DNA of 64,000 bases, from contig CAVOKF010000004.1 of the NCBI GenBank assembly GCA_963696385.1, positions 1,056,001 through 1,120,000 of the forward strand, written 5' to 3'. This DNA comes from an uncultured delta proteobacterium (GTDB lineage: Bacteria; Myxococcota_A; Polyangia; Polyangiales; Polyangiaceae). Below the pieces are notes generated by a model. That model saw only the letters and a list, made by a program, of their open reading frames with translations. It searched no databases and was not told the origin of the DNA. Position numbers and translations under genes: made by a program. This document shows positions 2,943 through 45,443 of the stretch, piece after piece; within the stretch, counting starts at the first letter, position 1; every line of letters starts with the position of its first letter.

Positions 2943-3308
2943 TTAGGTCCCCGTCAAGCGGCCCTTGGTGTACTTGCCGCGCTCTTTGGGGTGTTCGTTT
3001 TCGTAGGCCTCGAGACTCTCGGAGGCAATCTCCAGTTCAATCGTGCCTTCTCCGGTCACGCGGGCTTGGCACCCGAGTCGAGACGTTGCCCGTACGTCGA
3101 ATGCCTTGTCGAGCGCATCGGACTCCTCGTTCTGCTCGGCGCTGAGCAGCTCGGCCCCTCGCGCAACGTACACGTGGCAGGTGGAACAGGCGCACGCGCC
3201 GCCGCAGGCGCTGCCTACGGGAGCGCGTGCCTTCGTCGCAGCGTCGAGCACGGACGTGCCAGCGCCGACGGTCACCTCGCCGAAGCCCGCAAAGCGAATC
3301 GTCGCCAT
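2943..3308 (-). CDS. fdx: ISC-type 2Fe-2S ferredoxin
   Basis: ACGGACACSTCHVYV...SRLGCQ; last gene of isc/hsc run. Confidence 0.92.
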   Translation of the reverse strand: MATIRFAGFGEVTVGAGTSVLDAATKARAPVGSACGGACACSTCHVYVARGAELLSAEQNEESDALDKAFDVRATSRLGCQARVTGEGTIELEIASESLEAYENEHPKERGKYTKGRLTGT

Positions 3309-5221
3309 CAGCCGAGCTCTTGCGGGTGTGGGCCGTGGGCGTACTCGACGCCCTTGGCGTGCTCGACAGTCCGCGCGATCGCGTCCACGCGCTGACCCCC
3401 AATCGCGCGGGCCATCGCGCGATTCATTCGCCGCGCGGCGAACGCCTTGGTGGCTTCATCCAGCGCATCGATGCTGGCCTGAATGAGCGACGGCTGCTCG
3501 CCGCGCGAGGCTTGCTCGAGTTTCGCGTACGCCCGCTCGATCCTCTCCCTCTCTGCAACGTCGAGCAGGTCCGCATCGGAGTCGATTGCCTTCTGCGTCG
3601 CCAGGAGAATTCGAGCCGCCTCCACGCGATTCTCCGCCAGTCGCCGCCGGTTCAAGTCCTCCTCGCCGTGGTCGAGCGCCTCGGTGAGCATCCGTTCGAC
3701 GGTCGCGTCGTCGAGCCCGTAAGTGGGTCGGACCGTGACCTTCTGCTCGATGCCGGTCGTCGATTCCTTCGCGTGCACGCCGAGAAGACCGTCCGCGTCG
3801 ACCTGGAATTTGACTTCGAGGCGCGCCATTCCGGCGGCCATCGGCGGGATCCCTTTCAGGGTGATGCGCGCGAGACTTCGGCTGTCCGCGACGAGTTCGC
3901 GTTCGCCCTGGACCACGTGAATATCGAACCCGGTCTGGTTGTCTTCTTGCGTCGTGTAGGTGGCGCGAGCGGCGCAGGGGATCGACGAGTTGCGCGCCAG
4001 GATCTTATCGACGACGCCGCCTCCCACTTCGATTCCGAGCGATAGGGGGATCACGTCGAGCAGGAGCACGTCTTCCCGCCGCCTCGGGCCCGCCAACAGA
4101 TCCGCCTGGACGGCGGCGCCGAGCGCCACGACGCGGTCCGGGTCGATGTCGGCGAGCGGTTCTTTGCCGAAAAGCGCCCCCACATACCGTCTCACGAGCG
4201 GAACACGCGTCGCCCCACCCACGAGGATGACCCCATCGAGATCCTTCGGCGCCAACCCCGCGTCCTTCAGCGCGCGGCGACAGGCCACCCCCGTGCGCTC
4301 GAGAAGCGGGCCGATCAGCTCTTCGAACCCCCGGCGATGGACCACGACACGCCCGTGGCCGGCGACTTCGACTTCCACTTCGTCCTGGGTCGTCAGTTCG
4401 TGCTTGACCTTGCGCGCCTGGTCGAGGACCCATCGAACGAGTTGCGGCGTCTGCCGGGCAGAATCCAGCCCGACTTTCTCGAGAAGGTGGTGAGCGATGG
4501 CGCGATCCATGTCGTCGCCTCCAAGCTGGCTGTCGCCGCCGGTCGATCGCACCTGAAAGACGCCGTCGTCCAGCACAAGCACCGTGACGTCGAACGTCCC
4601 GCCGCCCAAGTCGTAGACCGCGAAGGTGCCATTCTGTTTCTTCTCGAGGCCGTACGCCAGAGCGGCTGCCGTCGGCTCGTTCAGGAGCCGCAACACGGTG
4701 AGCCCCGCAAGCCGTGCCGCGTCTTTGGTGGCCTGGCGCTGCGCGTCGTCGAAGTAGGCGGGCACGGTGATGACCGCGCCCCCGACGTTCTGAAGCTCGT
4801 CCTCGGCGAGGGCCTTGAGAGCGCGGAGAATTTCCGCGCTGACTTCGACGGGCGTGACCACTCGCCCGTCCGCAACCCGGAATCGGACCGTGTTCGACTG
4901 ACCCGGCTTGGGAGCGACAAATTCGTAGGGGCCGAGGCGCCGCGTTTCAGCGTCGTCGTTGCCGCGGCCCATCATTCGCTTCACGCTCACGATCGCGTCG
5001 CGCGGATGGTGGCTCGCAAATTCCGCCGCGAGACGCCCGACGATCACGTCACCGGCGGGCAAGTACGCGACGACGCTTGGAAGGAGGACGACCGAATCGC
5101 AATCGGCGATGGCGACGGGCCGCTCGTTCGTCACGTGGGCGACCAGCGAATGGGTCGTTCCCAGATCGATTCCGATCGGCCGCGGGGGCGCTTTGGGATC
5201 GAAGATCTCGAGCAATGCCAT
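3308..5221 (-). CDS. hscA: Fe-S chaperone HscA (Hsp70 family)
   Basis: [36 protein letters not shown]-terminal FAARRMNRA; between hscB and fdx. Confidence 0.95.
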
Positions 5222-5306
5222 TGGAACACCATCGCGGGGGATCCGCGCTCTGCCAGGTTTGTCGTCCGGTCTCTCGCCTCGCTCGAGCCTGCCGGCTCCA
5301 AGCCGA

Positions 5307-5816
5307 CTACGTAAGCTCGTCTTCGATGGCGCCTACTTCGTCCAGAAAGCGCCGGTAGAATCTCAACTTGCCGAGTTTGCCGACGAGGGGCTCGCATAGC
5401 CCGCTGGCGAGGCCGTCGCAGAGCTCTCGCTCCGTTTTGGTCCAGCGCGCCCGGACACCCTCGGCGAGGCTCGAAACCGCCTGTCGATCACGCGCGTCTT
5501 TCGCGTTCGACAGGGCTTCGCGCTGCTCGAGCATCTCCATGAGAAACTCCGGCTCGGGATTCGGCTCGCGGTCGTCGCCAAGGGCGATCCCGCTCAACGC
5601 AAGGAGGGCCTCGGCGCGCCGGAGCGGGTCGCGAACGATTCGCCACGCCTCGTTCACCTCGACCGCTCTGGCGAGCGCCTCTCGCCTCACGCCGGCGGTG
5701 GTCGCGAGGTGGCGGTCGGGGTGAAGCACCCGCGACAGCTCGCGATGGGTCTTTTCGAGCGCCCGCATGTCCACATCGTAGCGGCGAGCAATGCCGAGGG
5801 TCGCGAATGGGTCCAT
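5307..5816 (-). CDS. hscB: Co-chaperone HscB
   Basis: J-domain HPD motif, [23 protein letters not shown]. Confidence 0.92.
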
Positions 5817-8699: not shown

Positions 8700-9778
<1,079 letters not shown>

Positions 9779-16261: not shown

Positions 16262-16278
16262 GGGTGACGGGTGCTTGA

Positions 16279-16293
16279 GCAACGTTCGTTCCA
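16279..16293 (-). promoter_or_regulatory. sigma54 promoter abutting fixB
   Basis: Minus strand TGGAACGAACGTTGC, 17 nt before the ATG. Confidence 0.7.
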
Positions 16294-16441
16294 GCCCTGG
16301 CGTCAGGCCGACCCCGGTGAATTCCGCGGAGTGCCGAACCGTCCCCTTTTGCAGCCAAGCCCCGAGCCTCGTGAGGTTTCGGACCACGCGGGGTGCACCG
16401 GAGGGCCCTCGTCCGCTCAAGCGGTGGCCCGATCGCCGGAT

Positions 16442-16479
16442 TGTTGGACACCGCACACGGTCTTGTCGATCATCCGACA
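16442..16479. promoter_or_regulatory. two tandem NifA UAS between divergent promoters
   Basis: TGT-TGGACACCGC-ACA (16442-57) and TGT-CGATCATCCG-ACA (16464-79). Confidence 0.78.
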
Positions 16480-16527
16480 ACTCGCGTTTTGGGCGTCGCA
16501 TTCCCGGCCAAAGGCCCGGCTTTGCCC

Positions 16528-16542
16528 TGGTACGCGAGTTGC
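16528..16542 (+). promoter_or_regulatory. sigma54 promoter of SIR2-like gene
   Basis: TGGTACGCGAGTTGC. Confidence 0.75.
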
Positions 16543-16654
16543 TGGGTCGAGAGCGCGCCGCTCCATCCGCTTCCCGAAGGGGGCCAGGGGGCGCGCATGC
16601 GTGATGACGCGACTCGTGTTCCAAAGCCCCGCTTTCTCGAAAGGAAGAAAAGAC

Positions 16655-17545
16655 GTGACCCTAGCCGCCCCCACCGTGGAGCCGCTTTCCTGGACCGCGA
16701 TCGAGCCCCACCCGGACAGTTGGTTTCGGGAAGTCAGCGAGGGCCTACGCGCGGGAAGGTTGGCTCCGTATCTGGGTCCGGGAGTCATCGAACTTGCGCG
16801 CGCCTCCGTCCCATCGACGCAAGAGGCGCTCGCGGCGTTTTTGGGAGGCAAGGTCGCGCTGCCGCGCCGCGCGCGGGGTAACCTCGGGGCGGCCGCCCAA
16901 TACATCGAAAGCCACCGGCACAGGAGCGTGGTCGTTCAATTGATGGCGGAGGCCTTCGCCGTGCCGGTGTCGCCTCTTGCCATTCATCGGTACCTCGCCG
17001 AGCTGCCGCTGCCCCTCGTCGTCGACACCTGGTACGACGGCGCGATGCGCGCGGCCTTGGCGGGCCGGGCTAATTGGGGCGAAATTCAGGGCGTTCGCCG
17101 CTCGGGACTCGGCGGGGATCCGTACTACGCGACGTACGACGCAACCGGAGTGGCGTGCCCGATCGAGGTGGCAGACGGGTGGAAAACGGTTCTCTATAAG
17201 CCGCATGGTGCGAGCACGCCGGCGAAAAACTTCTTGGTCTCGGACTCGGACTACGTAGAAGTTTTGACCGAGATCGATATTCAGACCCCCATTCCTGAAG
17301 TGGTCAAGACGCGGCGTTCTCGCGTTGGCTTCGTGTTTCTCGGTTGTCGCCTCAACGACCAAACTTTGCGCTGCTACGCTCGTCAGCTGCTCAAGCGATC
17401 GGGCGAACGCCACTTCATCGTGATCGAGCCGGGTGTCGCAACCAGAAACGAGCGGCGTTTCATCAGCGAGCACGGCCTGATGGCGCTCGTGAGCCCGTTG
17501 GCCGCCGCCCTCGATCAGTTGACGGCCTTTCCGCGTGCGGCTTGA
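16655..17545 (+). CDS. nif-associated SIR2-like (SIR2_2) protein
   Basis: PYLGPG, VVDTWYD, LYKPHG, VSDSDY, FVFLGCR; GTG after AAGGAAG. Confidence 0.85.
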
Positions 17546-17662: not shown

Positions 17663-18181
17663 ATGAAACTGAGCGCCGACGTTCGGCTGCCGTTTGGGCG
17701 TGAAACCGTATACGTCGCGTATCGCGACGAGATGGGCAAGGTGCTCGAATTTTTGCCGAGCGTTCGGGCCGTCGACCTGAAAGCGCGACGTGAGGACGCG
17801 TTGGGGGTGCATCTGGTCCGCGAGTGGCACGGAGGAGGGGAGGTTCCCGCCGCCGTTCGCGGGATCGTGACCGAGTCCATGCTTGCGTGGGACGACTACG
17901 CGACTTGGGACGCGACGTCGTACTCCTGTGACTGGCAGATCGAATCGCGCAGCTTCCCGGACGCTCTTCGCTGCCGCGGCCGCACGTCATTCGTCGACGA
18001 GGGCGCAGGACAAACTCTCCTTGCCCTCCGCGGCACTATCGAGGTGCAGGCCCGCAGGCTCCCTGGAGTCCCGCCATTTCTGGCGGTTTCCGTGGCTCGT
18101 TCGGTGGAGGAGTTCTTGGTGGACAAAATTGAATCGAACGTGCGGCACGCGGTCGGCTGGTTCGAGAGGAATCGACCATGA
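17663..18181 (+). CDS. START/SRPBCC-fold-like hypothetical protein
   Basis: Good codon usage; VYVAYRDE...EWHGGGEVP...LAWDDYATW pattern. Confidence 0.55.
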   Translation: MKLSADVRLPFGRETVYVAYRDEMGKVLEFLPSVRAVDLKARREDALGVHLVREWHGGGEVPAAVRGIVTESMLAWDDYATWDATSYSCDWQIESRSFPDALRCRGRTSFVDEGAGQTLLALRGTIEVQARRLPGVPPFLAVSVARSVEEFLVDKIESNVRHAVGWFERNRP

Positions 18182-19182
18182 ACGCCCCGCCTCGCTCGAC
18201 CGGCTCCGGCGAGAGCCACGTTCTGCCGGTCCGTCTGCGGGAACTCCAATCGAAGTTTGAGGATCATGTCATCCTTGCGGTGCAAGGTTGGAATAAGCAC
18301 ATTGTCGACGAGACCCAACTCGAGGGCATGAGCGCGTACGCGAAGGCCGACGCCCGGGCCAAAGCCAGAGCGGAGGGCCTCGACGGATTCCTGCTCACGC
18401 TGGACTCTGCGAGTTACGATGCCGTGATGCGGGGCGCTGACGACCGCGCGCTCCGGCACGAAATGTACGAGGCCTATGCGACCCGCGCCTCCGATCGCGG
18501 ACCCCGGGCCTACCGGTTCGACAACGGCCCGATCATCGAGAACATCTTGGCCTTCCGTCACCAGGAGGCCACCCGGCTCGGCTTTCCGAACTATGCGGAG
18601 TGGTTGCTGCAAACGGAGGTGGGCGGGACGGCAGACGACGTGGAGCGCCTTCTGCTCGAGCTCAATGCGAAGGTGCGCGGGCGTGCCCAGGCCGAGCTAC
18701 ACGAGGTGTGGGCGTTCGCCAAGGCGGAGCACGGATTGAAGGGATTTCGCCCCTGGGATCTTCGGTATTACACAGAAAGGCTGGAACGAACGAAGCACGG
18801 TGTCGCTGACGTTCAGACAGGTGAATCGTTGCCCGGCACGATCCGCGGGCAGCCGATCTCCGGCGGCTCGTGCGATGTCGCGCTGACGCGGCTTTATGAG
18901 ATCGAAGCGGCGCTCTTCGATCTGCGAGTGCACCGCGACTATGTCCCCGCCGAGAAGGCATCTCGGCTACGCTCGCACGTCTTGGACACGCTGGCCCAGG
19001 CCCGTCGAGAGGTTAGCCTGCTGCCGCCGCCCCCGTGGGACCGGTTCGCCAGTAGCTTCGGGGTCGGCTTTGGCAACCGCTCGGCGCCCACCTGGGTCAT
19101 GGGCCTTTTTCTGCAATCCGGGCACGCCGACGATCCCGTCGGACGATTTAACGAGGGCGCTGGCGGGCTTACCAATGGCTAG
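18178..19182 (+). CDS. Internally deleted oligopeptidase A (M3) homologue lacking HEXXH
   Basis: EAYATRASD..DNGPII..LGFPNYAE..PWD..YY, then a jump to EAALFDLRVH..DRFASSF. Confidence 0.75.
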   Translation: MNAPPRSTGSGESHVLPVRLRELQSKFEDHVILAVQGWNKHIVDETQLEGMSAYAKADARAKARAEGLDGFLLTLDSASYDAVMRGADDRALRHEMYEAYATRASDRGPRAYRFDNGPIIENILAFRHQEATRLGFPNYAEWLLQTEVGGTADDVERLLLELNAKVRGRAQAELHEVWAFAKAEHGLKGFRPWDLRYYTERLERTKHGVADVQTGESLPGTIRGQPISGGSCDVALTRLYEIEAALFDLRVHRDYVPAEKASRLRSHVLDTLAQARREVSLLPPPPWDRFASSFGVGFGNRSAPTWVMGLFLQSGHADDPVGRFNEGAGGLTNG

Positions 19183-19253: not shown

Positions 19254-19269
19254 TGTCGGAACTGCGACA
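19254..19269. promoter_or_regulatory. NifA UAS
   Basis: TGT-CGGAACTGCG-ACA. Confidence 0.72.
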
Positions 19270-19311: not shown

Positions 19312-19326
19312 TGGCACGTATCTCGC
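19312..19326 (+). promoter_or_regulatory. sigma54 promoter
   Basis: TGGCACGTATCTCGC. Confidence 0.72.
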
Positions 19327-19340
19327 TACGAGTCTAAACG

Positions 19341-19748
19341 ATGGCGCCCAATTCGATGACAAGCGACACGCTTTCCCTCTCGCCCTCGGCATCGCCCTCG
19401 AACTCGCCCGCCGTAACGGCCGCAGCGGAACAATTCATGCGGCGCATGGTGCGGTTCGGGGGCGCCGGCGCCGGCTTTCGACTCGTGGTGAGTCTCGGTG
19501 GGTGTTCGGGGTTGGGTTCGGAGTTCAGTCTCGAATCCGGGCCGAGGCCGGGCGACCGCGTTCTCGAGGTGAACGGCCTGAAGATTTTTCTCCCCGCCCA
19601 AAGTTACGAGCTTCTCGATGGGGTCACCATCGACTTCGCCGACACGCGAATACAAACGGGGTTGACCTTTCTGCATGCGAAGGCGAGTGGCGGATGCCAG
19701 ACGAGCAGCGCGCCCAAGTTGGTGCAGCTCGCGCCGCTCCGCTCCTGA
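19341..19748 (+). CDS. HesB/IscA-like protein, paralogue of 1279-1671
   Basis: Shares FMRRM.RFGG.GAGFRLVVS.GGCSGL..EFS and GVTIDF.DT with the first copy. Confidence 0.85.
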   Translation: MAPNSMTSDTLSLSPSASPSNSPAVTAAAEQFMRRMVRFGGAGAGFRLVVSLGGCSGLGSEFSLESGPRPGDRVLEVNGLKIFLPAQSYELLDGVTIDFADTRIQTGLTFLHAKASGGCQTSSAPKLVQLAPLRS

Positions 19749-19804: not shown

Positions 19805-20218
19805 ATGGCGGCGATGGAATTGAAAACGGCGGAGGTGCCCAACCCGCACTTTGCCCGGATAGGCGGCGCGCCCGTCGTTCGTCTCCTTGTGGAGTCGTTC
19901 TATCGCCGGATGGACACGTTGCCCGAGGCGGCCGGTATCCGTGCGATGCACGCCGAGGATCTCACCGAGATTAAATTCGTGCTCCAGCTCTATCTCGTGG
20001 AGTGGCTGGGCGGTCCGAAGGACTACAGTCAGCGTCGCGGTCCCCCGAGACTGCGCGCGCGGCACTCGATGTTCCCCATCGGCGTCGCGGAGCGCGACGC
20101 ATGGATGCTGTGCATGCGCGGCGCGCTCGACGAGGTCGTCGCGGACGCGGAGCTCCGGAATCAGCTCGAGAACGCGTTCTTGCGGACCGCGAACGCGATC
20201 GTGAACACGCGCCCCTGA
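19805..20218 (+). CDS. Group II truncated haemoglobin
   Basis: IGG...LVESFY, WLGGP.DY...G.PRLRARH..FPIG..ERDAWM.CM. Confidence 0.92.
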   Translation: MAAMELKTAEVPNPHFARIGGAPVVRLLVESFYRRMDTLPEAAGIRAMHAEDLTEIKFVLQLYLVEWLGGPKDYSQRRGPPRLRARHSMFPIGVAERDAWMLCMRGALDEVVADAELRNQLENAFLRTANAIVNTRP

Positions 20219-20344: not shown

Positions 20345-20359
20345 CGGCACGGTTCGTGC
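20345..20359 (+). promoter_or_regulatory. sigma54 promoter
   Basis: CGGCACGGTTCGTGC upstream of AGGAG RBS. Confidence 0.65.
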
Positions 20360-20395
20360 TGAGCCGGATCGAACGAACAGGAGCGCGAATCCGAT

Positions 20396-21304
20396 ATGGC
20401 CAACGTAACATTCTCTTCTCCGGTGATGGCGCGGGACATCACCGTCTATGCCGTCGCGGGGGATCGCGGAACCATCCTCGCACTCGCCAAGGAGCACAAG
20501 ATTCCCATCCCTTTCGATTGCCAGGACGGCGAGTGCGGATCCTGTCTCGTCGAAATCAAGCACCTATCGGTCGGCGCGCGGTACGGCATCGCACTCACCG
20601 AGAAGGAGAAGGAACTCCTCCGGCAACTCGGCAGGATTAGCCGGGAAGAGATCAAGGACGCCGAGGTCAACGACATGCCGCCGCGGTTCCGACTGGCGTG
20701 CCAGTGCTTCGTTCGAAACGAGGATATTATCGTGTCCTTCGAGGGGGATACGACGCTGCCCCCCAAGGGGCCGGCTCTCTCGATCGCCGCGGCCGTTTAC
20801 CGGGGCGGCGTCTCGATCCGAACGCTGGAGGAGTTCTTGAGCTATGCGGTCAAAGTCGAGGAGGACGCGGCTATCCACTTCGAACGCCTCGCAGAGGCAA
20901 TGGATGCTTGCGGCAATCGGGATGTGGCCGTGCTGTTTCGCCAACTCGGTGGGTATTCTCGCCTCCATCTCGAAGAGGCCAAAGCGAAGTCCGTGGCGCA
21001 CGGAGTCGTGGTGACCCTTCCTGCCAACTCCGCATGGCCCGATCACGAGACACCGGAGCGTACGGCGTTCTGGGCGGGGCACCCCTCGCGCTCGCGGCTC
21101 GACGCGCTCAAGGCCGCGCTCCAAGGCGAGCGGCGCGGCTTCGAATTCTATTTTGCCGTCGCCGGGACCACGACGGATGCGGGCATCCGTGCCGTGGCCA
21201 AAGAGTTCGTCAAAGAAGAAACGGAACACGTCGATACGCTCAAACAGTGGATCGCGAAAGAAGAAGCCTCGCTGCGAGCGCCGTTCGAGGGCGTCACCTC
21301 ATGA
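20396..21304 (+). CDS. FeSII (Shethna II)-like 2Fe-2S ferredoxin fused to rubrerythrin/ferritin-like domain
   Basis: FSSP.M, AVAG.R.T.L, IPF.CQDG.CGSCLV, LTEKEK, DMPP.FRLACQ match FeSII motifs from recall; C-terminus has VEEDAA..F, GERRGFEFY, EETEH di-iron motifs. Confidence 0.82.
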   Translation: MANVTFSSPVMARDITVYAVAGDRGTILALAKEHKIPIPFDCQDGECGSCLVEIKHLSVGARYGIALTEKEKELLRQLGRISREEIKDAEVNDMPPRFRLACQCFVRNEDIIVSFEGDTTLPPKGPALSIAAAVYRGGVSIRTLEEFLSYAVKVEEDAAIHFERLAEAMDACGNRDVAVLFRQLGGYSRLHLEEAKAKSVAHGVVVTLPANSAWPDHETPERTAFWAGHPSRSRLDALKAALQGERRGFEFYFAVAGTTTDAGIRAVAKEFVKEETEHVDTLKQWIAKEEASLRAPFEGVTS

Positions 21305-21332
21305 TGCGGGCGGAGGCGAAGGAAAAGTCGCG

Positions 21333-21788
21333 ATGAACGACGTGAACACCTTTCTGGCGCACGCCATCCAACTCGAACGCGACGCGGCGCGGCGTTTCGA
21401 AGACTTGTCGCATTCGATGCAAACCGCCGGCAACCGTGAGGTCGAAGCGCTCTTTCGTCGCCTCGGGGAGTTTTCGAGGCTACACCTCCAGACGGCCCTG
21501 GCGCGCGGCGGCTTCCGGAGCCTGCCGGAGATTTCACCGGCCGAATTTCAGTGGCCCGACGGCGTCACACCCGAAGCGGCGGGGTGGCAAGGTGTCGACG
21601 CCGGGCTCGACGTGCACGGCGCGTTGCAGGTCGCGCTCGAAGGCGAGCGCAGCGGCCACGCCTACTACGAGGCGATTGCCCACACCTCGGACGATCCCGA
21701 AGTGGCCACGATGGCGCTCTCGTTCGCGGAGGAAGAGGCGCAACATGTCTCCGAACTGGAGCGCTGGGTCGCACGTTTTTCGCCCTGA
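21333..21788 (+). CDS. Rubrerythrin/ferritin-like di-iron protein
   Basis: LERDAARRF, SRLH, GERSGHAYY, EEEAQH; paralogous to the C-domain of the upstream gene. Confidence 0.85.
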   Translation: MNDVNTFLAHAIQLERDAARRFEDLSHSMQTAGNREVEALFRRLGEFSRLHLQTALARGGFRSLPEISPAEFQWPDGVTPEAAGWQGVDAGLDVHGALQVALEGERSGHAYYEAIAHTSDDPEVATMALSFAEEEAQHVSELERWVARFSP

Positions 21789-21908: not shown

Positions 21909-22115
21909 ATGACGGACCATGTGTACAAGATTGAAGAGTTCGTGGGATCGTCTCCGATTGGACAAGATGAGGCGATTCGAAACGCGATCAAGCGGGCGGC
22001 CGAGACGCTGCACCGTCTTCGATGGTTCGAGGTGACGGAAACTCGGGGCCAGATCACGGACGGCCGTATCGTGCATTGGCAAGTTACGGTGCGCGTGGGT
22101 TCGACGCTCGAATAG
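21909..22115 (+). CDS. Dodecin (flavin-binding)
   Basis: [11 protein letters not shown]...AI.RA.ETL..LRWFEV.ETRG...WQV. Confidence 0.92.
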
Positions 22116-22188: not shown

Positions 22189-22331
22189 TGTCGCGACACC
22201 GACAAGACCTGGAACGAACGACATCGCTCCAGCCGGAAGTTGCCTCTCGTCACTTATGGACCGGCGCCAGAGCTCGGTCGGCGCCTTCTTCGATCTCATC
22301 GTCGACGAACGCCCTTGTCAGGAACCGTACA
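22189..22331. promoter_or_regulatory. two NifA UAS
   Basis: TGT-CGCGACACCG-ACA (22189-204) and TGT-CAGGAACCGT-ACA (22316-331). Confidence 0.7.
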
Positions 22332-22401: not shown

Positions 22402-22416
22402 TGGCACGGGCGTTGC
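22402..22416 (+). promoter_or_regulatory. sigma54 promoter, consensus match
   Basis: TGGCACGGGCGTTGC. Confidence 0.88.
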
Positions 22417-22438
22417 GCTCAGGATGGGATGGAGCACG

Positions 22439-22783
22439 ATGGACGCCCCCGCAGCACTCGAATTACCGGTCGTTTTCCGACACCATGCGTTTTGCTGCTT
22501 TCAGCAACGCCCGCCGGGGCACCCACGCGGGAGCTGCTCCGGCCTGGGTGCCGGCCCGCTCTGGGAGCGCCTCAGCGGACAACTGCAAGCAAAGGGGCTC
22601 GCCGACGCTTCGCTGGTCGCGACGGGCTGCCTCGGCTTTTGCGGGGCCGGTCCGCTCATGGTCGTGTACCCCGCCGGGGTCTGGTACCAGCCGCGAACGC
22701 CCGCCGACATCGACGAGATCGTGCAGTCGCATTTCGTCGAGGGCAAACCGGTCGAGAGGCTCATCGTCGTGCTGAAGGGCTAG
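22439..22783 (+). CDS. Thioredoxin-like 2Fe-2S ferredoxin (FeSI/Shethna I-like)
   Basis: C.QQRPPGHPRGSC...TGCLGFC..GP..VVYP.GVWY. Confidence 0.88.
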   Translation: MDAPAALELPVVFRHHAFCCFQQRPPGHPRGSCSGLGAGPLWERLSGQLQAKGLADASLVATGCLGFCGAGPLMVVYPAGVWYQPRTPADIDEIVQSHFVEGKPVERLIVVLKG

Positions 22784-22802: not shown

Positions 22803-23795
22803 TTGCAGGTGATCCCTCTTGCTCTGCCCCGGCCGTGGCTCGACGCTCCCGCAGCCGTGCACTTGACGGGCGACCGGCTGCTTCGCATCGAAGGAAGTGG
22901 CAGTCGGCGCTGGCTCAACGCGATGCTGACCGCGGACCTTCGCACGGCGGCTCCCGGCGTCGCACGCTACGCCCTGTTGCTCTGCGCAACCGGCGGGATT
23001 GTCAGCGACGCCTGGGTCGTCGAGCACGCTGTCGGGGAGCCCGAACGACTGACGCTCGTCCTGCCCGAAGCGTGCGCGGAGCGCGCCGCGAGGGAGCTGA
23101 CGAGATTCGTGGTCAATGAGGAGATTGCCCTGACTTTCGACGACGACGTCCGCGTCGTCTCCCTGCAAGGCCCCCGCGGCCGCGACCTGCTCGACATCGA
23201 CGGTCCGGTGGCCGTTGCAAACGCCTACCCTTGCGCCCGGCTGGGTCCGCAGGGACTCGACGTGTGGGTTCGAGCGCCGCAGGTCGACCTCGCGATGGCA
23301 CTCCTGTCGGCGAGCGCGTCCCGGCTCGGCGGCGGGGCGATGAACGCCATCGAATGGTGCTCGGCTCGAGTCGCACTCGGGGTTCCGCAGGCCGGAACCG
23401 ACTTCAACGAGACCACGTCCCCGCACGAGGCGGGGATCGAGGCGCGCGCCATCTCGTTCACCAAGGGCTGCTATTTGGGCCAGCAAACCGTGGCCAGGCA
23501 ACATCGCCGTGGTGGGCTCACGCAACGGCTCGTCCAGCTGGACGTCGAAGGCCCCCAGGGGGTCGAAAAAGGCTCGGGGGTGCGTGGCCCAAGTGGCGAA
23601 GAGGTGGGCCGCGTCACGTCGGTGGCCTCGGCGAGCGACGAGGGCAGCAGCGCTTTGGCGCTCGTCTACCTGACTGCGCCCTTCGCACAGGTCGGCGCTC
23701 GCGTGATGGTGGGTGAACGGCAAGCTCAGGTCCGAAGCATCGTGGGCCGGCTCGGGACTGCCGCGCCACCACACCACGCGACGGCAGGATGGTGA
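22803..23795 (+). CDS. YgfZ/GcvT-family folate-dependent Fe-S maturation factor
   Basis: AISFTKGCYLGQQ motif; start uncertain. Confidence 0.85.
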   Translation: MQVIPLALPRPWLDAPAAVHLTGDRLLRIEGSGSRRWLNAMLTADLRTAAPGVARYALLLCATGGIVSDAWVVEHAVGEPERLTLVLPEACAERAARELTRFVVNEEIALTFDDDVRVVSLQGPRGRDLLDIDGPVAVANAYPCARLGPQGLDVWVRAPQVDLAMALLSASASRLGGGAMNAIEWCSARVALGVPQAGTDFNETTSPHEAGIEARAISFTKGCYLGQQTVARQHRRGGLTQRLVQLDVEGPQGVEKGSGVRGPSGEEVGRVTSVASASDEGSSALALVYLTAPFAQVGARVMVGERQAQVRSIVGRLGTAAPPHHATAGW

Positions 23796-23985
23796 TCTGC
23801 CGCTTTGCGTCCGGCTTCTCCGGAGCCCGAGCCCTCCATCGCATCTTCGTCGCTTGCTGCCATGGGCAACGATATGGCGACAAGTGCTTTCCGGGCACTC
23901 AGGCCGTCCATCATGGGATTACGTTGCGTCGACGACGAGAGTTCGCGCCGCGAATACTTGGGGCGCGGAAACGTTTCGGCAACAC

Positions 23986-23999
23986 TTGATTAACATCAA
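23986..23999. promoter_or_regulatory. FNR/FixK box upstream of nifA
   Basis: Perfect TTGAT-TAAC-ATCAA in an AT-rich patch. Confidence 0.85.
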
Positions 24000-24126
24000 A
24001 GGTAGTCTTCGCACGCTTTTCAGTTATGGGCCGATTTTTACTCGGCGGACGATTGCGAGGCGGCCCAGCGGGTGTAACGTGATTGGGTGACACGGAAACG
24101 GCAACCGTGGAACTGAGCGCAGCCGA

Positions 24127-25923
24127 TTGATGCGATCCTCGACCCTTTCGCCCGTTCCTTCCTATTCGGATGGCGAAGCCGTGCCGGATTCCGATGAGCG
24201 AGCTGAGCCCGGCTCTGCGAACTCGGAGATCGCGCTCTACGGTGTCTATGAGATCTCCAAAGTGCTCAACGAGCCAGGACGCCTGGAGGTCACACTCGGA
24301 AAGGTGGTCCATCTGCTGTCGAGCTTTCTCGACATGCGACATGGCTTGATCGCTCTTCTCGGGGAGCGCGGCGATCCGGAGATTGTCGTGGGAAGCGGAT
24401 GGAGCGAGGCCACGGCAAAGCGGTATTTCGATCGCCTGCCCGAGCGCGCCATCGGACAGATTGTCGTCACGCAGATGCCTCTCGTCGTCCCCAACATGAG
24501 GGACGAGGCGCTCTTCGAAGGGTGGGACTTCTCGGGCGACCGGGATGTGGCCGGCGACATTGCGTTCATCGGGGTCCCCATCAAGGACCGGGGAGAGGTG
24601 GTGGGGACGCTCACGATCGATCGAGAACTGGGGCCGCAGCGAGCCGTCCCGCTCGATGACGATGTGCGTTTCCTCGCGATGGTCGCGAACCTCGTCGGGC
24701 AGACGGTTCGCCTCCAGCGTATGATTGCTCGCGATCGCGAACGGCTCATGGTCGAGCGAGCGCGTCTCGAGAAGAGCGTCGAGCGGAAGACGTCGCCGGA
24801 CGAGAGCCACGCGCTCGGCGACATTTTCGGTGGGAGCAAGGCTCTCCATGCCGTCGTCGAGAAGGTGCGCATCGTTGCCCGGAGCAACTCGACGGTTCTT
24901 TTGCGAGGCGAGTCCGGCACGGGCAAGGAACTCTTCGCTCGCGCCGTCCACGATCTGTCGCCACGCCGCGATCGGGCGTTCGTGTCGGTCAACTGCGCCG
25001 CGTTGCCTGAGGCCGTGCTCGAGTCCGAGCTTTTCGGGCACGAGAAGGGAGCGTTTACGGGGGCGGCTTCGCAGCGCAAGGGGCGCTTCGAACTCGCCGA
25101 CGGCGGCACGTTGTTTTTGGACGAGATCGGAGAGATCTCACCTGCTTTTCAGGCCAAACTCCTTCGGGTGCTCCAAGAGGGGGAATTCGAGCGCGTCGGA
25201 GGGACGACGACGCTGAAAGTCAACGTGCGCCTCGTCGCGGCCACCAATCGCAATCTCGAGGAAGCGGTAAGTCAGCGCGAGTTTCGCGCCGACCTCTACT
25301 ACCGGATCAGCGTCGTGCCCATCTTCCTGCCGCCGCTGAGGGACCGGCCCAGCGATATCCCGCCGCTCGCCGAAGAATTTCTTCGGCGGTTCAACGAGGA
25401 GCACGCCACGGGACTCACCCTCGGGGCCGGTGCGATTTCCGTGCTCACGTCGTGTTCGTTTCCCGGCAACGTGCGTGAGCTCGAGAACTGCGTGCGTCGC
25501 ACCGCAACGCTCGCGGCAGGAACCACCCTGGTCGCGGACGACTTCGCCTGCAAGCACGACGAGTGCTTGTCGGCCGTCCTGTGGAAAAAGCCGATGCAGC
25601 CGCCCGACGTCGGCTTTGTCCCGTTGCCGATTACTCGTGCGCGAAGCGTTGCGCACGGCAGCGTGTCCGCGCCGGCGGGCCCGGGCTGCCAACCATCCGC
25701 CTCACCTGAGGGTGAATCCGAATCCGTCACGATCTCGCTGTCAGGGTCGGATCGTCCGGCGCCGGTCGCCCAGGGGGCCAACAAGAGCGATCGAGATCGA
25801 CTCATCGAGGCCATGGAATCCGCAGGCTGGGTTCAAGCGAAGGCGGCGCGTCTTCTTGGAATCAGTCCGCGACAGATCGGCTATGCGCTGCGCAAGTACG
25901 ACATCGAAATCAAGAGGTTTTGA
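24127..25923 (+). CDS. nifA: NifA sigma54 activator (GAF-AAA-HTH, Cys-linker type)
   Basis: [15 protein letters not shown]-x11-C-x19-C-x4-[19 protein letters not shown]; true start may be downstream (GTG 24181). Confidence 0.96.
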
Positions 25924-26724: not shown

Positions 26725-27289
26725 TCAGCCCACTCGTGCGCTCACGCGGTCGCCCCCCCTCGCGATCTCGCCCCACCAGTTTTTGAGAACCCAGAGATGG
26801 GCGTCGAGCATCGTTGCCATTCCGTCGCGCAAGGATAGCCAGTTGTGGACCATCCCGCGAGGCACGGCGGTCAGGACCGGGCAGCCACTGAATGTGGCCC
26901 GTGCCAGCTCCCGTCTGAGCCCGTGTCCACGTCCTTCCTCTTTACCGAAGCGTGAGACGAAAATGAGAATCCGCGTCGGAGTCAATCGCGGCTCGAATTC
27001 GGCCGGCCGCGTGCCGGAGCGCAGTCGGGTTCAGCGCACAGTCCTCCGCCCCCCGTCCGAGGTCTCGACAAATCGAGAACGTCTCGCCCGTGGCGACGTC
27101 GCGCAACATCCTCGGCGCGTTGGGCCCGCATCCCGGGCTGCCCCGCGGAAGCTGAATGACTCCCCCCAATCGAACGCCTTCGGTCGCAAGGTCACGTGCG
27201 AATACGAGCAGGAGCTCGTCCACCGCGACGCCCACGTCGTAAACCACGGCGGCGAGCTTACGCGGGTCCATCGTCACTGCGTCGTCCAT
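26725..27289 (-). pseudogene. DUF2478-family protein with +1 frameshift near 26968
   Basis: GVRLGGVIQ..ICRDLGRGA..CALNP in one frame; IFVSRFGKEE..G.GLR..PVLTAVP in the next. Confidence 0.75.
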
Positions 27290-27640
27290 CTCTCTCTCCG
27301 CTCCCCCGGTTCGTACAGTCACCGACACAACGACGGCCGCTCGGCGGTCTTGTCCGCCTCTGTGGCGTTCGCAAGCGCCGCGCCAGATCCCGGGCACCCG
27401 CTCGCCGGCTCGGCCTGGACACCGCACACCCGTGTGCGAGCTCACTCATTTCCCTCATCGCGGCTCACGGCCCATCGCGGCTCAACCCGCCGGGGTGCTT
27501 CTCTTAGGCCTCGCAGCCGGAGGCCGGGCTGCACGTGCGCCGGCCCTGCGGTCGAATGGAGGGTCGGAAATGTTACAAAAAGCCGTGTCGCAATTGTTGC
27601 TTTTGCGACCTGCGAGCGCAGGGAGCCGCGTTCGTTCGCG

Positions 27641-38143: not shown

Positions 38144-38986
38144 ATGAGCCAGAACGCGGATACCGGTGCGCCCATCCCCGCGTCGCCTCCCGGCGACGAA
38201 CGCCACGACCTGCACGCCGAGGTCCAGCGGCTCCGGCGTGCGCAGCGCACGGCCCAGAGGACGATCCGGGAACTCAGGGCCGCCGTCGCCGCGCGAGACG
38301 AGTTCATCGCGATCGTGAGCCGCGAGCTGCGTAACCCGATGGGAGCCATCGTTGTCAGCGCGAGCCACATGATTTACAAGGCGGGGCGCGAGCCAGATGT
38401 GCCAGCTTGGCTCGCGCCTCGCCTTTTGACGCTCGAACGCCAGACACGCAGCTTCGTCCGCCGCGCGACGACGCTCATGGACGTCTCCCGCCTCGCGACC
38501 GGAAACCTGCGCCTCGACCGGGACGTCGTCAGCCTGAGCGACGTCGTGAGCAACGTGGCACGCGAGCTCGCCACCGAGGCCGAGCACGCCGGATGCGACC
38601 TGCGCCTGTCCATCGAGCCGAACGTGGTCGGGACCTGGGATCGGGTCGCGCTCGAACAGATCACGATGGACCTGATGTCGAACGCCATCAAGTACGGTGC
38701 CGACCGCCCGGTGGAAACTTCCGTCACGTCCACAGGCGAGGACGCGACGATCGAGGTCCGCGATCACGGCGCGGGCATCTCCGAAGTCGACCGGTCCCGC
38801 ATCTTCGAGCCCTTCGAGCGCGCGGTCGTCCCGCGCCGGTCGAAGCCGGGCTTCGGTCTCGGGCTATGGATCACGCGGCAGCTCGTGATCGCCCACCGAG
38901 GCGAAATGGCGGTAGAGAGCCAGTCGGGGATCGGTTCGGTCTTCACGGTGAGCCTTCCGCGGGCGATACAGAAGCTTCCCCGATGA
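38144..38986 (+). CDS. Histidine-kinase-like protein with His-to-Arg in H-box
   Basis: SRELRNPM; NAIKY, DHGAG, GFGLGL boxes intact. Confidence 0.85.
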   Translation: MSQNADTGAPIPASPPGDERHDLHAEVQRLRRAQRTAQRTIRELRAAVAARDEFIAIVSRELRNPMGAIVVSASHMIYKAGREPDVPAWLAPRLLTLERQTRSFVRRATTLMDVSRLATGNLRLDRDVVSLSDVVSNVARELATEAEHAGCDLRLSIEPNVVGTWDRVALEQITMDLMSNAIKYGADRPVETSVTSTGEDATIEVRDHGAGISEVDRSRIFEPFERAVVPRRSKPGFGLGLWITRQLVIAHRGEMAVESQSGIGSVFTVSLPRAIQKLPR

Positions 38987-44975: not shown

Positions 44976-45351
44976 ATGACAAAGACCAAGCCCGCCGAGC
45001 AATCGCAGTCCAAGGCGTCGAACGAGCTCGGCAAGGCCCGAACGGGCATCGCAGACCTCGACGAATTGACTTCGGGAGGGCTGCCTCGCGGTCGTCCTAC
45101 GCTGGTCTGCGGCAGTGCTGGCGATCAGCGTTTGCAAGTCGCGAGGCACGGCGCACTCGAACCAGATCCGAGAGTTTGTCATCAGCGCTCGAGGCCTTAC
45201 GCTGGTCAGCGCGTATCGCGCCGCCGATGGCCTCGTCACCGGGTCCGCGCGGGAGGCGCAGCAGCGGCACGACCAGGCCAACGGCGGAGGGGTCCACCAC
45301 AACGGCGGCCGCCACCCCGAAACTCCGGCCGACGCCCAAGGGTCCCCATGA
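44976..45351 (+). pseudogene. kaiC: kaiC with most of the gene deleted
   Basis: TGIADLDELTSGGLPRGRPTLVCGSAG joined near 45120 to KSRGTAHSNQIREF...TGSAREAQ. Confidence 0.85.
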
Positions 45352-45443
45352 GCGGTACGGCCAAGAAGATCATCGGCGATCTCTCGAACTTCGAACGTGT
45401 GCTGGTCGGTCTCGAGCTGACGGCCTACCCGGTGCAGCGATGA
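45348..45443 (+). pseudogene. kaiB: kaiB remnant (start plus C-terminus)
   Basis: MSGTA-KKIIGDLSNFERVLVGLEL; ATGA overlaps on both sides. Confidence 0.75.

Follow-up and report, generated by a model that had tools for sequence, protein, structure and literature searches.

A widespread fusion of a FeSII-type [2Fe-2S] domain and a ferritin-like domain in nitrogen-fixing bacteria

Architecture of the fusion protein

A gene located at positions 20396-21304 on the plus strand of the analysed window, a stretch of 64,000 nucleotides of Polyangiaceae DNA, encodes a protein of 302 amino acids (open reading frame translation) in which a FeSII-type [2Fe-2S] domain and a ferritin-like domain are combined in one chain. 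FeSII itself is known, but the fused combination is widespread and unstudied. Its occurrence is almost confined to nitrogen fixers, and the link is strong. On balance, we consider the fusion to be best explained as an oxygen guard of the nif regulon, of the FeSII/FdxD type, that carries a redox-active metal domain, and thus probably as a guard of a second kind.

The FeSII (Shethna protein II)-type domain spans residues 1-118 (20396-20749, plus strand), with the cluster ligands C42, C47, C50 and C102 and the N-loop helices hN1 (69-77) and hN2 (83-91). It is followed by a linker of residues 119-142 (20750-20821, plus strand), which was modelled with low confidence (pLDDT <50) and has conserved positions at T120, P122, P126, A131, A132, G137 and G138. 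Residues 143-302 (20822-21304 including the stop codon, plus strand) form a rubrerythrin/ferritin-like four-helix bundle with helices A (144-171), B (175-201), C (234-258) and D (262-298). The model of the complete protein reached a pTM of 0.49, and the geometry between its domains carries no confidence. A first-pass annotation, made from the sequence alone, had proposed that a FeSII-like domain is joined to a four-helix domain, and this was borne out by the FeSII alignment, the Pfam Rubrerythrin match and the structure matches. Its description of FeSII as a single-domain protein, however, proved too narrow, as the family comprises stand-alone, split and fused forms, the fused form being a large and tightly conserved clade. 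Pfam and NCBIfam scans of the fusion protein detected neither a rubredoxin-type FeS4 domain nor a DNA-binding or signalling domain. A search for longer architectures found no FeSII-type domain at E<=1e-10 in any protein of 530-2000 amino acids, which is weak evidence on this point.

The N-terminal domain belongs to the FeSII family

The N-terminal domain is a true member of the FeSII family, as opposed to a common ferredoxin of the adrenodoxin or plant type. Residues 1-118 align without a gap to residues 1-118 of A. vinelandii FeSII (5ffi_A; E 1.4e-33, 119.5 bits), and since the second-best ferredoxin match had an E-value of 0.006, the similarity goes far beyond chance and beyond generic Fer2 resemblance. 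The FeSII motifs that had been recognised in the sequence, namely FSSPVM (6-11), AVAG (19-22), CQDGECGSCLV (42-52), LTEKE (67-71) and DMPPRFRLACQ (93-103), are all present, each opposite its A. vinelandii counterpart in the gapless alignment. In addition, the top Foldseek matches of the fusion model were all FeSII chains, the best being 9cu1_N, which is FeSII as found in the nitrogenase complex (TM 0.86 on the target, 45% identity). Alignment, Foldseek and the phylogenetic tree thus all place the domain with FeSII, and the grouping with ordinary adrenodoxin-like ferredoxins that the first-pass annotation had named as counter-evidence did not appear.

An N-loop insertion with the helices hN1 and hN2 is a feature of FeSII that is missing in other ferredoxins of the same fold. 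Residues 56-98 of the fusion, which cover this region, align to FeSII without a gap, and helices 69-77 and 83-91 of the model correspond to the published hN1 (69-78) and hN2 (84-91) of Azotobacter FeSII (PMC11754109, section 6). In the fused family, hN1 and the end of hN2 rank with the best conserved segments, with mean column identities of 91% and 95%, respectively, versus 73-86% for the ferritin-like helices. All four cysteine ligands are aligned in the window protein and occur without exception in the 120 fused relatives. Each of these cysteines, as well as D44, K70, E71, R99 and K72 (R72 in A. vinelandii), is found in either 120 or 119 of the 120 fused proteins, and position 76 is R or K (K76 in A. 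vinelandii). The window protein accordingly has the residues of the redox-switch salt bridges D44-K70 and E71-R99, the pairing being predicted from the residues. Where A. vinelandii FeSII contacts NifH through R72, N73 and K76 of hN1 and through E41 and E118, the window protein has K72, E73, R76, D41 and D118, which are conservative replacements except for N73E.

Other contact or dimer residues of the Azotobacter protein are lost in the fused family: K63, which bridges to D204 of NifD, is replaced by Y, S or H, K53 by E, and R92 by N. N92 and E53 are not specific to the fusion, because both also dominate the closest stand-alone forms. The idea that the loss of R92 tracks the fusion was rejected. 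N92 is nearly universal in the fused proteins (119 of 120), but among the 120 best short matches, some of which are fragments of fusions, 103 have it as well and only 5 have R92. The chain of Azotobacter FeSII ends at residue 122, where its free C-terminal carboxylate caps the [4Fe-4S] cluster of NifH, and R92 holds this free C-terminus in the reduced state. The fusion, with N at position 92 and a chain running to residue 302, has no free C-terminus near residue 122. Because the chain continues into the ferritin-like domain, it has no free NifH-capping carboxylate at that position.

The ferritin-like domain and its predicted metal site

The C-terminal domain of the fusion and a stand-alone paralogue encoded by the next gene were each modelled as four long helices. 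Both match Pfam Rubrerythrin (PF02915; 27.8 bits for the fusion and 38.4 bits for the paralogue, with a cut-off of 22.8), as do all 48 of the 48 ferritin-like family members. Their best match in both sequence and fold is 2OH3, a COG1633 protein of Magnetospirillum magnetotacticum that stems from structural genomics and is of unknown function. E-values against 2oh3_A were 2.5e-17 for residues 143-289 of the fusion and 2.2e-20 for the paralogue, while 2OH3 matched the family profile with an E-value of 3.8e-34 and the fold with a Z of 20.4 and an rmsd of 1.9 A over 142 residues. The similarity extends over the full length and includes S-x-x-H, the W..PE loop and EExxH, but 2OH3 is a single-domain protein and has T where the fusion has R189. 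Ranking after 2OH3, the structural neighbours were Dps-like proteins, bacterioferritins and ferritins.

The first metal-site motif reads GGYSRLH in the fusion (185-191) and GEFSRLH in the paralogue (45-51), and the second reads EETEH (274-278) and EEAQH (134-138), respectively. Indeed, an atypical first ligand pair next to a normal EExxH, as the first-pass annotation had described for both proteins, is conserved across 81 C-domains and 48 paralogues, with S, R and H of the S-R-x-H motif being invariant or nearly so. Furthermore, neither the fused domain nor the paralogue shows any variation at E155, H191, E245, Y252, E274, E275 and H278. The candidate metal ligands of the fusion are E155, H191 (with S188 replacing Glu), E245, E274/E275 and H278, and Y252 is near. 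The C-domain is predicted to carry a conserved five-ligand (Glu/His) site for a putative redox-active metal.

Classical rubrerythrin or ferritin-like di-iron proteins, such as TM1526 (1VJX), symerythrin and bacterioferritin, have the same four-helix bundle and Pfam Rubrerythrin assignment, and the second half-site (E...Y...ExxH) is canonical in these proteins and in the fusion. The six-ligand site of classical rubrerythrin (E, ExxH, E, ExxH), however, is not intact, as helix B contains S188-R-L-H191 in the fusion and S48-R-L-H51 in the paralogue; TM1526 (1vjx) has QERIH where the fusion family has SRxH. Since the first ExxH reads SRxH, one bridging carboxylate is missing, and a classical di-iron centre is not assured because Ser replaces the first metal-site Glu.

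A stand-alone paralogue often adjoins the fusion gene

The paralogue of the ferritin-like domain, which the first reading of the sequence had correctly placed after the fusion gene, is encoded at 21333-21788 (plus strand). It comprises 151 amino acids, is 40% identical to residues 136-297 of the fusion, and carries E15, S48-R49-x-H51, E105, Y112 and E134-E135-x-x-H138. Among 80 fusion loci, the paralogue adjoins the fusion gene in 47 (35 downstream, 12 upstream) and lies elsewhere in one, and none was seen within ~6 kb of the fusion gene in 32. One carrier genome (G013) contains no second match at E<=1e-15. An obligatory pairing of fusion and paralogue was therefore rejected: with no paralogue within that distance at 32 of 80 loci and none at that threshold in at least one carrier genome, the hetero-oligomer that had been suggested as a possibility cannot be obligatory. 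At one locus (L016), a hemerythrin gene occupies the place of the paralogue; nothing similar was seen at the other 79 loci.

Distribution and link to nitrogen fixation

The fused family yielded 324 matches in species genomes and more than 1000 protein clusters. Its carriers amount to several hundred species, including methanotrophs, photosynthetic bradyrhizobia, purple bacteria, Burkholderiales, Steroidobacteraceae and Polyangiaceae. We detected nifD (E<=1e-50) in 70 of 79 carrier genomes, and the nine genomes without it were all MAGs, judged by the titles of their records. Within one order, for which 301 genomes were inspected, FeSII-type domains occurred in 31 of 36 nifD-positive versus 0 of 265 nifD-negative genomes. 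Neither of these co-occurrence counts is phylogenetically independent. Stand-alone FeSII was present in 28 of the 31 genomes and the fused form in 3, never both in the same genome, and this alternation among nifD-positive genomes suggests that the two forms share one job. In the tree, the fused proteins form a separate clade (SH-aLRT 97) that is far more uniform in sequence than the stand-alone forms; stand-alone proteins of 121-123 amino acids from Rhodobacterales are placed just outside this clade.

In the genome from which the window derives, the fusion is the sole FeSII-type gene. The window begins 8.5 kb after nifD and contains nifH, nifX, nifQ, nifW, nifT, nifS and fixBC. Across the 80 loci, the query set used returned no nif or fix gene within ~6 kb of the fusion in 54, and a Pfam scan of six loci showed unrelated neighbours in five. 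HesB was found within the same distance in 2 of the 80 loci, YgfZ in 1 and NifA in 11.

Genomic context, predicted regulation and presence in RNA

The window locus is a co-oriented run of genes, and all features described here are on the plus strand. Its first gene encodes a HesB/IscA-type Fe-S assembly protein (19341-19748; Pfam Fe-S_biosyn 5.9e-8, TIGR00049 1e-14). A sigma-54 -24/-12-like element, TGGCACGTATCTCGC (19312-19326), with one mismatch, ends 15 nt before the HesB ATG, and upstream of this promoter lies a NifA-UAS-like TGT-N10-ACA site, TGTCGGAACTGCGACA (19254-19269), a motif that 2.5% of randomly chosen control windows of 200 nt also contain. HesB is followed by a truncated (bacterial-like) globin (19805-20218; Pfam Bac_globin 1.1e-31), the start of which was placed at the in-frame ATG at 19805. 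A weaker sigma-54-like element, CGGCACGGTTCGTGC (20345-20359), is located 37 nt before the ATG of the fusion gene; it retains GG-N10-GC with two mismatches and is not significant alone, and an identical element is present at -44 in the closest relative (L004). Beyond the paralogue, the run continues with a flavin-binding dodecin (21909-22115; Pfam Dodecin 6e-25, NF043052 4.8e-29) and a perfect sigma-54 element, TGGCACGGGCGTTGC (22402-22416), accompanied by two TGT-N10-ACA sites at 22189 and 22316. Further downstream are genes for a thioredoxin-like [2Fe-2S] ferredoxin of the Azotobacter/Clostridium type (22424-22783; NF041613 4.5e-23 and NF041612 3.1e-19, both below the curated cut-offs), a YgfZ/CAF17-like folate-binding Fe-S cluster repair/insertion protein (22803-23795; TIGR03317 3.5e-22, GCV_T 2e-15) and, judged by its domain content (GAF, AAA+ and HTH_8), a NifA-type sigma-54 activator (24127-25923).

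The 200 nt before the fusion gene of the window contain no NifA-UAS-like site, the nearest ones being those at 19254 and at 22189/22316. A scan of the locus for sigma-70 promoters found nothing, and no plus-strand terminator-like site was detected between 19300 and 24300. When 77 fusion loci were considered together, 28 had a sigma-54 element (>=9/10) within 200 nt upstream of the fusion gene, versus 1.4% of the control windows, and 28 had an upstream TGT-N10-ACA site, versus 2.5% of the control windows. This enrichment holds even for fusion genes outside nif clusters. Judged by these predicted upstream sites, the fusion gene appears to belong to sigma-54/NifA-type regulons.

One metatranscriptome contig covers positions 20384-21425, and an RNA contig from a second study covers 20398-20963, demonstrating presence in RNA libraries rather than a level, a strand or a single transcript. 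The libraries containing the fusion derive from soil and peat. No contig of the RNA run extended over 23584-24135, a stretch that was covered in the DNA run.

Discussion

The N-domain of the fusion resembles FeSII of A. vinelandii and A. beijerinckii (5FFI, 8RHO, 8RHP, 9CU0-2, 9IEY) over residues 1-118 without a gap and with 45-47% identity. Common to both are the four Cys ligands, the N-loop with hN1 and hN2, D44-K70, E71-R99 and basic residues at positions 72 and 76, and both come from nitrogen-fixing organisms. Azotobacter FeSII, however, is a protein of 122 residues with a free C-terminus, whereas the fusion adds a ferritin-like domain of 160 residues and lacks K53, K63 and R92. The fusion is known here from sequence and predicted structure. 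A further FeSII-type ferredoxin that resembles the N-domain is FdxD of the alphaproteobacterium R. capsulatus, the gene of which lies upstream of nifHDK. Passages in PMC8777916 and PMC11301756 describe it as fesII-like, NifA-dependent and needed for Mo-nitrogenase under oxygen. FdxD is a stand-alone protein, in contrast to the separate fused clade, and presumably belongs among the Rhodobacterales proteins just outside that clade.

In favour of the fusion being an oxygen guard, we counted the FeSII membership of its N-domain, the conserved hN1 and hN2, the link to nifD, the sigma-54/NifA sites, the presence in RNA, the invariant metal site and the precedent of FdxD. Against it, we counted the lost C-terminal carboxylate, the changes at K63, K53 and R92, the replacement of Glu by Ser, and the non-nif neighbours. 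If the fusion acts as such a guard, oxygen intrusion would oxidise the [2Fe-2S] cluster, and hN1 and hN2 would, by analogy with Azotobacter, bind to both the Fe protein (NifH) and the MoFe protein. In place of the end of the Azotobacter FeSII chain, the 24-residue linker would lead into the ferritin-like bundle, which may be a redox-active partner of the cluster. The metal domain might act in one of two ways: as a trigger, it could react with O2 or H2O2 and pull an electron from the cluster, or, as a local sink, it could remove O2 or H2O2 by using electrons passed from reduced NifH to the cluster. The free paralogue would then be an optional extra copy or partner of the ferritin-like domain, conceivably within a heteromer.

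Rubrerythrin consists of an electron-transfer domain joined to a ferritin-like domain, and a rubrerythrin that protects nitrogenase from H2O2 is known from cyanobacterial heterocysts. The fusion could be a self-contained ferredoxin-rubrerythrin in which the [2Fe-2S] domain replaces the rubredoxin domain as the internal wire to the metal site. It would then be a soluble H2O2 or O2 reductase that clears the cytoplasm of nitrogen-fixing cells and does not dock on nitrogenase. This explanation, the foremost of the alternatives though in our view a doubtful one, would fit the parallel architecture (with a C-terminal rubredoxin domain in rubrerythrin and an N-terminal FeSII-type [2Fe-2S] domain in the fusion), the Pfam matches of the entire ferritin-like family, the heterocyst precedent, the many fusion copies outside nif clusters, and the absence of the Azotobacter-type free C-terminus and of K63, K53 and R92. 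Yet it sits uneasily with an N-domain that is specifically of the FeSII type, N-loop included, and that contributes some of the best conserved parts of the protein with its surface helices hN1 and hN2. It is likewise at odds with the alternation of fused and stand-alone FeSII and with the disrupted six-ligand rubrerythrin site.

A role in iron handling for Fe-S repair, in which the ferritin-like domains would oxidise or hold iron set free from oxygen-damaged clusters and the [2Fe-2S] domain would move electrons for its uptake or release, together with HesB/IscA and YgfZ, strikes us as improbable. The window neighbours, including further isc/nif assembly genes, and the Dps-like, bacterioferritin and ferritin fold neighbours are consistent with it, but the neighbourhood is not conserved at other loci, there is no sign of a cage-forming ferritin or Dps, and the FeSII-specific features would be left unexplained. 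Lastly, it is hardly credible that the protein senses redox state or oxygen and passes the signal on to nif regulation (e.g. NifA) instead of protecting the enzyme. The fusion gene does precede nifA by 2.8 kb in the window, and NifA is near at 11 of 80 loci, but the other 69 loci are without it, a DNA-binding or signalling domain is lacking, and FeSII relatives of known role act on the enzyme itself.

A more far-reaching version of the oxygen-guard proposal, which we consider unlikely, is that the fused form is the main, overlooked version of conformational protection outside Azotobacter, with the ferritin-like domain as its missing oxidant and sink. If this were true, an O2-reactive metal centre, tethered at the place where the C-terminus of FeSII contacts the NifH cluster, would throw the [2Fe-2S] switch immediately on the arrival of oxygen. 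The protected complex would then consume O2 or H2O2 with NifH electrons delivered via the [2Fe-2S] cluster, deoxygenate its immediate vicinity and free itself after the oxygen has disappeared, and the free-standing paralogue would extend or cap the protected nitrogenase assembly.

The fusion bears on the question of how nitrogenase survives bursts of oxygen in aerobic and microaerobic nitrogen fixers besides Azotobacter. According to a passage in PMC11301756, protective activity had, as of 2024, been shown only for Azotobacter, and FeSII is being discussed as a means to support engineered nitrogenase in crop plants (PMC11754109, section 9). The fused form represents a natural experiment on the contribution of a tethered metal domain to the FeSII mechanism, and on what oxidises FeSII first. 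Literature searches for FeSII or Shethna protein with rubrerythrin, ferritin-like and fusion, and for 2OH3, retrieved no description of the fusion, and the main text of Franke et al. 2025 uses none of the words homolog, orthologue and fused. In the protein atlas, the fused family appears only under generic 'rubrerythrin/ferritin family' clusters. In two papers that deal with rubrerythrin, ferredoxin and the NifA regulon, the rubrerythrin named is another gene.

The N-terminal domain belongs to the FeSII family

The first 118 residues of the 302-aa fusion protein and of A. vinelandii FeSII (5ffi_A) aligned without gaps (E 1.4e-33), with the first match to a non-FeSII ferredoxin at E 0.006. The first-pass annotation had claimed a series of FeSII motifs in this region, and each of them indeed lies opposite its FeSII counterpart in the alignment. 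In an AlphaFold2 model computed with 44 family members as input (mean pLDDT 74), helices were predicted at 69-77 and 83-91, the positions of hN1 (69-78) and hN2 (84-91). These helices form the N-loop insertion that distinguishes FeSII from other ferredoxins of the same fold (Franke et al. 2025, PMC11754109). The top Foldseek matches were FeSII chains, the best being 9cu1_N, FeSII in the nitrogenase complex (TM 0.86 on the target, 45% identity). By all sequence and fold criteria tested, except for the free C-terminus, the N-terminal domain is a member of the FeSII family. This family is small and distinct, since the domain drew only 211 proteins at E<=0.001 (10 at E<=1e-30) from 1.84 billion representatives clustered at 50% identity. 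Relatives consisting of the domain alone (115-135 aa) made up 1299 clusters, fragments among them, and a search for longer architectures (at least 530 aa) with a FeSII-type domain found none, which is weak evidence.

The fusion itself is widespread. At E<=1e-5, a word-indexed search matched 1064 protein clusters; in the top 120, lengths were 291-367 aa and identities 75-99%, with Fer2 in all and Rubrerythrin in nearly all. With one genome taken per species, relatives were encoded in 324 of 353 candidate stretches. Among the best 80 of these 324 loci, the closest (86-87% identity) came from Polyangiaceae and MAGs named 'delta proteobacterium', a hint, though no proof, of the lineage of the window itself; the others included Methylocystis, Methylocapsa, Bradyrhizobium, Rhodopseudomonas, Rhodoblastus, Rhodopila, Telmatospirillum and Novosphingobium, as well as Steroidobacteraceae, Derxia, Methyloversatilis, Pelomonas and Ampullimonas. 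Identity across the 80 loci was 71-92% for the N-domain and 51-83% for the C-domain. Annotation pipelines already label both domains. Published work describes FeSII in Azotobacter and proposes that FdxD of R. capsulatus and a ferredoxin of Gluconacetobacter act in an FeSII-like way (PMC11301756, PMC8777916). In the open-access literature searched, we found neither a description of a FeSII-ferritin-like fusion nor a paper that mentions 'FeSII' together with 'ferritin-like'. For nitrogenase research the fusion is of genuine interest, and the mechanism given below is a proposed one.

Fused, split and truncated forms

A quick maximum-likelihood tree (LG+G4, SH-aLRT only, midpoint root) was built from 118 columns of 110 FeSII-type domains, after exclusion of 21 of 131 rows that lacked any one of the four Cys or covered fewer than 100 of 115 positions. 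Many forks were unresolved. All 44 fused N-domains fell inside one clade (SH-aLRT 97), which also took in two fragmentary representatives and three stand-alone Rhodoblastus proteins of 133 aa. Just outside it were 121-123-aa Rhodobacterales-type proteins and one split form, with the more distant stand-alone ferredoxins towards the root. This topology is compatible with a single origin of the fusion, although it does not prove one. Because the 133-aa Rhodoblastus proteins nest within the fused clade, the tree suggests that they lost the C-domain secondarily in a duplicate. Four Rhodoblastus genomes carry, in addition to the fused gene, another of FeSII type, which in one of them (G044) is the split form described next. 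In this split form, seen in one Rhodoblastus MAG (L094), a 116-aa FeSII-type gene lies immediately before a gene for a ferritin-like protein, the two facing nifH. In the window's genome, the fusion is the sole FeSII-type gene.

The fusion family is associated with nitrogen fixation

The window (G+C ~64%) contains a portion of a large nif island. A Pfam scan identified nifT, nifS, a NafY-like gene, nifW, nifH, nifX and nifQ, along with an hscBA-iscU/iscA set, DUF269, DUF683, an fdxN-type ferredoxin, a modC-like ABC ATPase (ABC_tran + TOBE) and fixCB; nifD lies on the same contig, 8.5 kb before the window start. After a SIR2-like ORF and an M3 peptidase fragment comes a co-oriented plus-strand run, in which profile scans identified HesB/IscA (19341-19748), a truncated globin (19805-20218), the fusion gene with its FeSII-type and ferritin-like domains (20396-21304), the paralogue of the ferritin-like domain (21333-21788), a dodecin (21909-22115), a thioredoxin-like [2Fe-2S] ferredoxin (22424-22783), a YgfZ-like protein (22803-23795) and a NifA-type activator (24127-25923).

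Among the 79 genomes behind the 80 best loci, 70 had a nifD match at E<=1e-50 (34 of 40 and 36 of 39 in the two batches) and 63 had nifD above the curated cut-off; the nine without a match are all labelled MAGs. In 301 genomes drawn evenly from the order of Methyloversatilis thermotolerans, 36 had nifD, and the FeSII-type domain occurred in 31 of these versus none of the other 265 (raw counts that ignore shared ancestry). The domain was stand-alone in 28 of the 31 carriers, fused in three and present in both forms in none. The ferritin-like part alone was matched in nine further genomes of this order, three nifD-positive and six nifD-negative, with only 29-35% identity in the latter. Physical linkage was partial: with 18 neighbour proteins from the window's nif island as queries, at least one nif/fix gene lay within ~6 kb in 26 of 80 loci, and a Pfam scan of six loci showed unrelated neighbours in five and nifA plus nifB in one. 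Many nifD-positive genomes of the sampled order carry tandem FeSII-type ferredoxin genes ~2 kb from nifD (for example G217:C17:3550-4273, G180:C12:1405-2104 and G254:C7:1613-2323), with identity to the N-domain of the window at 53-59% for one gene and 33-42% for its partner.

Upstream elements and RNA libraries

Putative sigma-54 elements on the plus strand were located at 19312 before HesB (one mismatch), with a TGT-N10-ACA site at 19254; at 20345, 37 nt before the fusion gene (two mismatches, GG-N10-GC intact); and at 22402 before the thioredoxin-like ferredoxin (perfect), with two TGT-N10-ACA sites. Since two-mismatch sites are common by chance in the window (74 found versus 56 expected), the weight rests on the comparative result. 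In the 200 nt preceding the fusion gene, elements scoring at least 9 of 10 were present in 28 of 77 loci versus 1.4% of controls, and those scoring at least 8 in 54 of 77 versus 11.6% (1540 random windows from the same loci). TGT-N10-ACA occurred upstream in 28 of 77 loci versus 203 of 8000 control windows. Such upstream sites were seen also at loci outside nif clusters, for example L016, L062 and L080.

No plus-strand terminator-like site was found between 19300 and 24300. Contigs from metatranscriptomic run X10 extend over the globin gene, the ferredoxin/YgfZ genes and 20384-21425, a stretch that takes in the entire fusion gene and 93 nt at the start of the paralogue; adapter sequence was present at 20384. 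The stretch 23584-24135 was uncovered by these RNA contigs, and the DNA run of the same study covers everything. An RNA run of a second study (X20) yielded a contig over 20398-20963. These contigs indicate presence in RNA libraries, not level, strand or a single transcript. Another strain (DNA and RNA run) has a 21-nt insertion at 21318/21319, in the 28-nt gap between fusion gene and paralogue.

The C-terminal domain and the paralogue share an atypical candidate metal site

Residues 143-302 form four long helices in the AlphaFold2 model and score above the Pfam Rubrerythrin cut-off. The nearest relative is 2OH3 (E 2.5e-17; fold match TM 0.74), an uncharacterised structural-genomics protein of no known function. 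The 151-aa paralogue is 40% identical to the C-domain; its confident model (pLDDT 86.6) also matched 2OH3 best (Z 20.4, rmsd 1.9 A, 142 residues), followed at Z 15-17.5 by Dps-like proteins, bacterioferritins and symerythrin, scores that helical bundles commonly reach.

Across 81 C-domains and 48 paralogues, the following residues (C-domain/paralogue) showed complete or at least 98% conservation in each group: E155/E15 in helix A, S188-R189-x-H191/S48-R49-x-H51 in helix B, loop residues W214-P215 and P220-E221 (C-domain numbering), E245/E105 and Y252/Y112 in helix C, and E274-E275-x-x-H278/E134-E135-x-x-H138 in helix D. The groups differ in H161 of the C-domain versus R21 of the paralogue. The family profile also matches TM1526 (1vjx, 'putative ferritin-like diiron-carboxylate protein'; E 1.5e-7), and because TM1526 reads QERIH opposite YSRLH of the fusion, Ser occupies the place of the canonical Glu of the first ExxH. 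The atypical first ligand pair noted in the first-pass annotation is therefore correct and represents a family trait, 2OH3 (FSTLH) included. Five of the six classical rubrerythrin ligands are retained as candidate ligands, and E274 or the loop residue E221 might take the place of the sixth; the C-domain belongs to the rubrerythrin/ferritin-like superfamily and is not a classical rubrerythrin.

In a Rhodomicrobium MAG, the paralogue beside the fusion gene (L028:6978-7418, +) has two in-frame stops and represents either a decaying copy or assembly errors. In Methyloversatilis thermotolerans, a hemerythrin gene (L016:7105-7584, +) takes the paralogue's usual place after the fusion gene; a search of the remaining 79 loci showed no counterpart.

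A possible redox partner for the FeSII switch

In Azotobacter FeSII, oxidation of the [2Fe-2S] cluster moves the cluster loop, breaks D44-K70 and frees the N-loop, whereupon hN1 (R72, N73, K76) binds NifH, with hN2 facing the MoFe protein. On the [4Fe-4S] cluster of NifH lie E41, E118 and the terminal carboxylate group of A122; a distance of 12.5 A separates this cluster from the [2Fe-2S] cluster, and FeSII can be re-reduced by reduced NifH. In the fused family, the cluster ligands, D44, K70, E71, R99, K72 and R/K76 were kept in 119-120 of 120 members, and D41 and D118 are conservative replacements of E41 and E118. hN1 and the end of hN2 are among the most conserved segments (mean column identity 91% and 95%); the neighbouring variable loop reaches 60%, and the helices of the ferritin-like domain 73-86%. 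The window's NifH retains the VEDLEL, CAGRG and INFLEE motifs, which, by Azotobacter NifH numbering, would hold the FeSII-contacting residues. The retention of switch and contact residues, hN1/hN2 and NifH motifs, together with the either/or occurrence of stand-alone and fused forms among nifD carriers, argues that the N-domain probably does the job of FeSII.

Whereas Azotobacter FeSII ends on the NifH cluster, the fusion chain continues there, via a linker in which Pro, Ala and Gly positions are conserved, into the putative metal domain. The ferritin-like domain would then serve as redox partner of the [2Fe-2S] cluster, either as trigger or as sink. The domain arrangement in the AlphaFold2 model is not reliable (pTM 0.49). 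Several features speak against the FeSII-type reading: Azotobacter K63 (salt bridge to NifD), K53 and R92 are not kept, the free C-terminal carboxylate is gone, one classical metal ligand is absent from the C-domain, many fusion copies lie away from nif genes, and the paralogue is dispensable in many genomes. A rubrerythrin-style alternative, in which electrons would take the same path without docking on nitrogenase, is the less probable one, and no observation here separates the two readings directly. A FeSII-type switch coupled to a ferritin-like partner is our preferred reading.

Other features of the window

Two copies of nifH, both with a profile score of 451.4 bits, occur in the genome: one (G000:C4:1046390-1047214) adjoins nifD just upstream of the window, and the other (8807-9778) is followed by nifX, not nifDK. 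A SIR2_2-domain ORF (16271-17545, +; 2.2e-18) lies between fixB and the oxygen-protection run, in unusual company for nif genes. Of the 680 positions of the oligopeptidase A model, the ORF at 18178-19182 (+) covers only 157-353, and it looks like a truncated M3 peptidase remnant within the island. Halves of DUF2478 are found on two overlapping minus-strand ORFs (26725-26985, profile 96-159; 26942-27445, profile 1-95), probably a single gene split by a frameshift or assembly error. The Pfam NAD-GH (PF10712) match at 4337-5314 (+), antisense to hscA (3308-5221, -), is most likely a spurious ORF. A KaiBC-type timing or stress module is suggested by two plus-strand ORFs downstream of the island (38407-40500 and 45176-47518), for a KaiC-like ATPase and for a histidine kinase/response-regulator hybrid with a KaiB domain.
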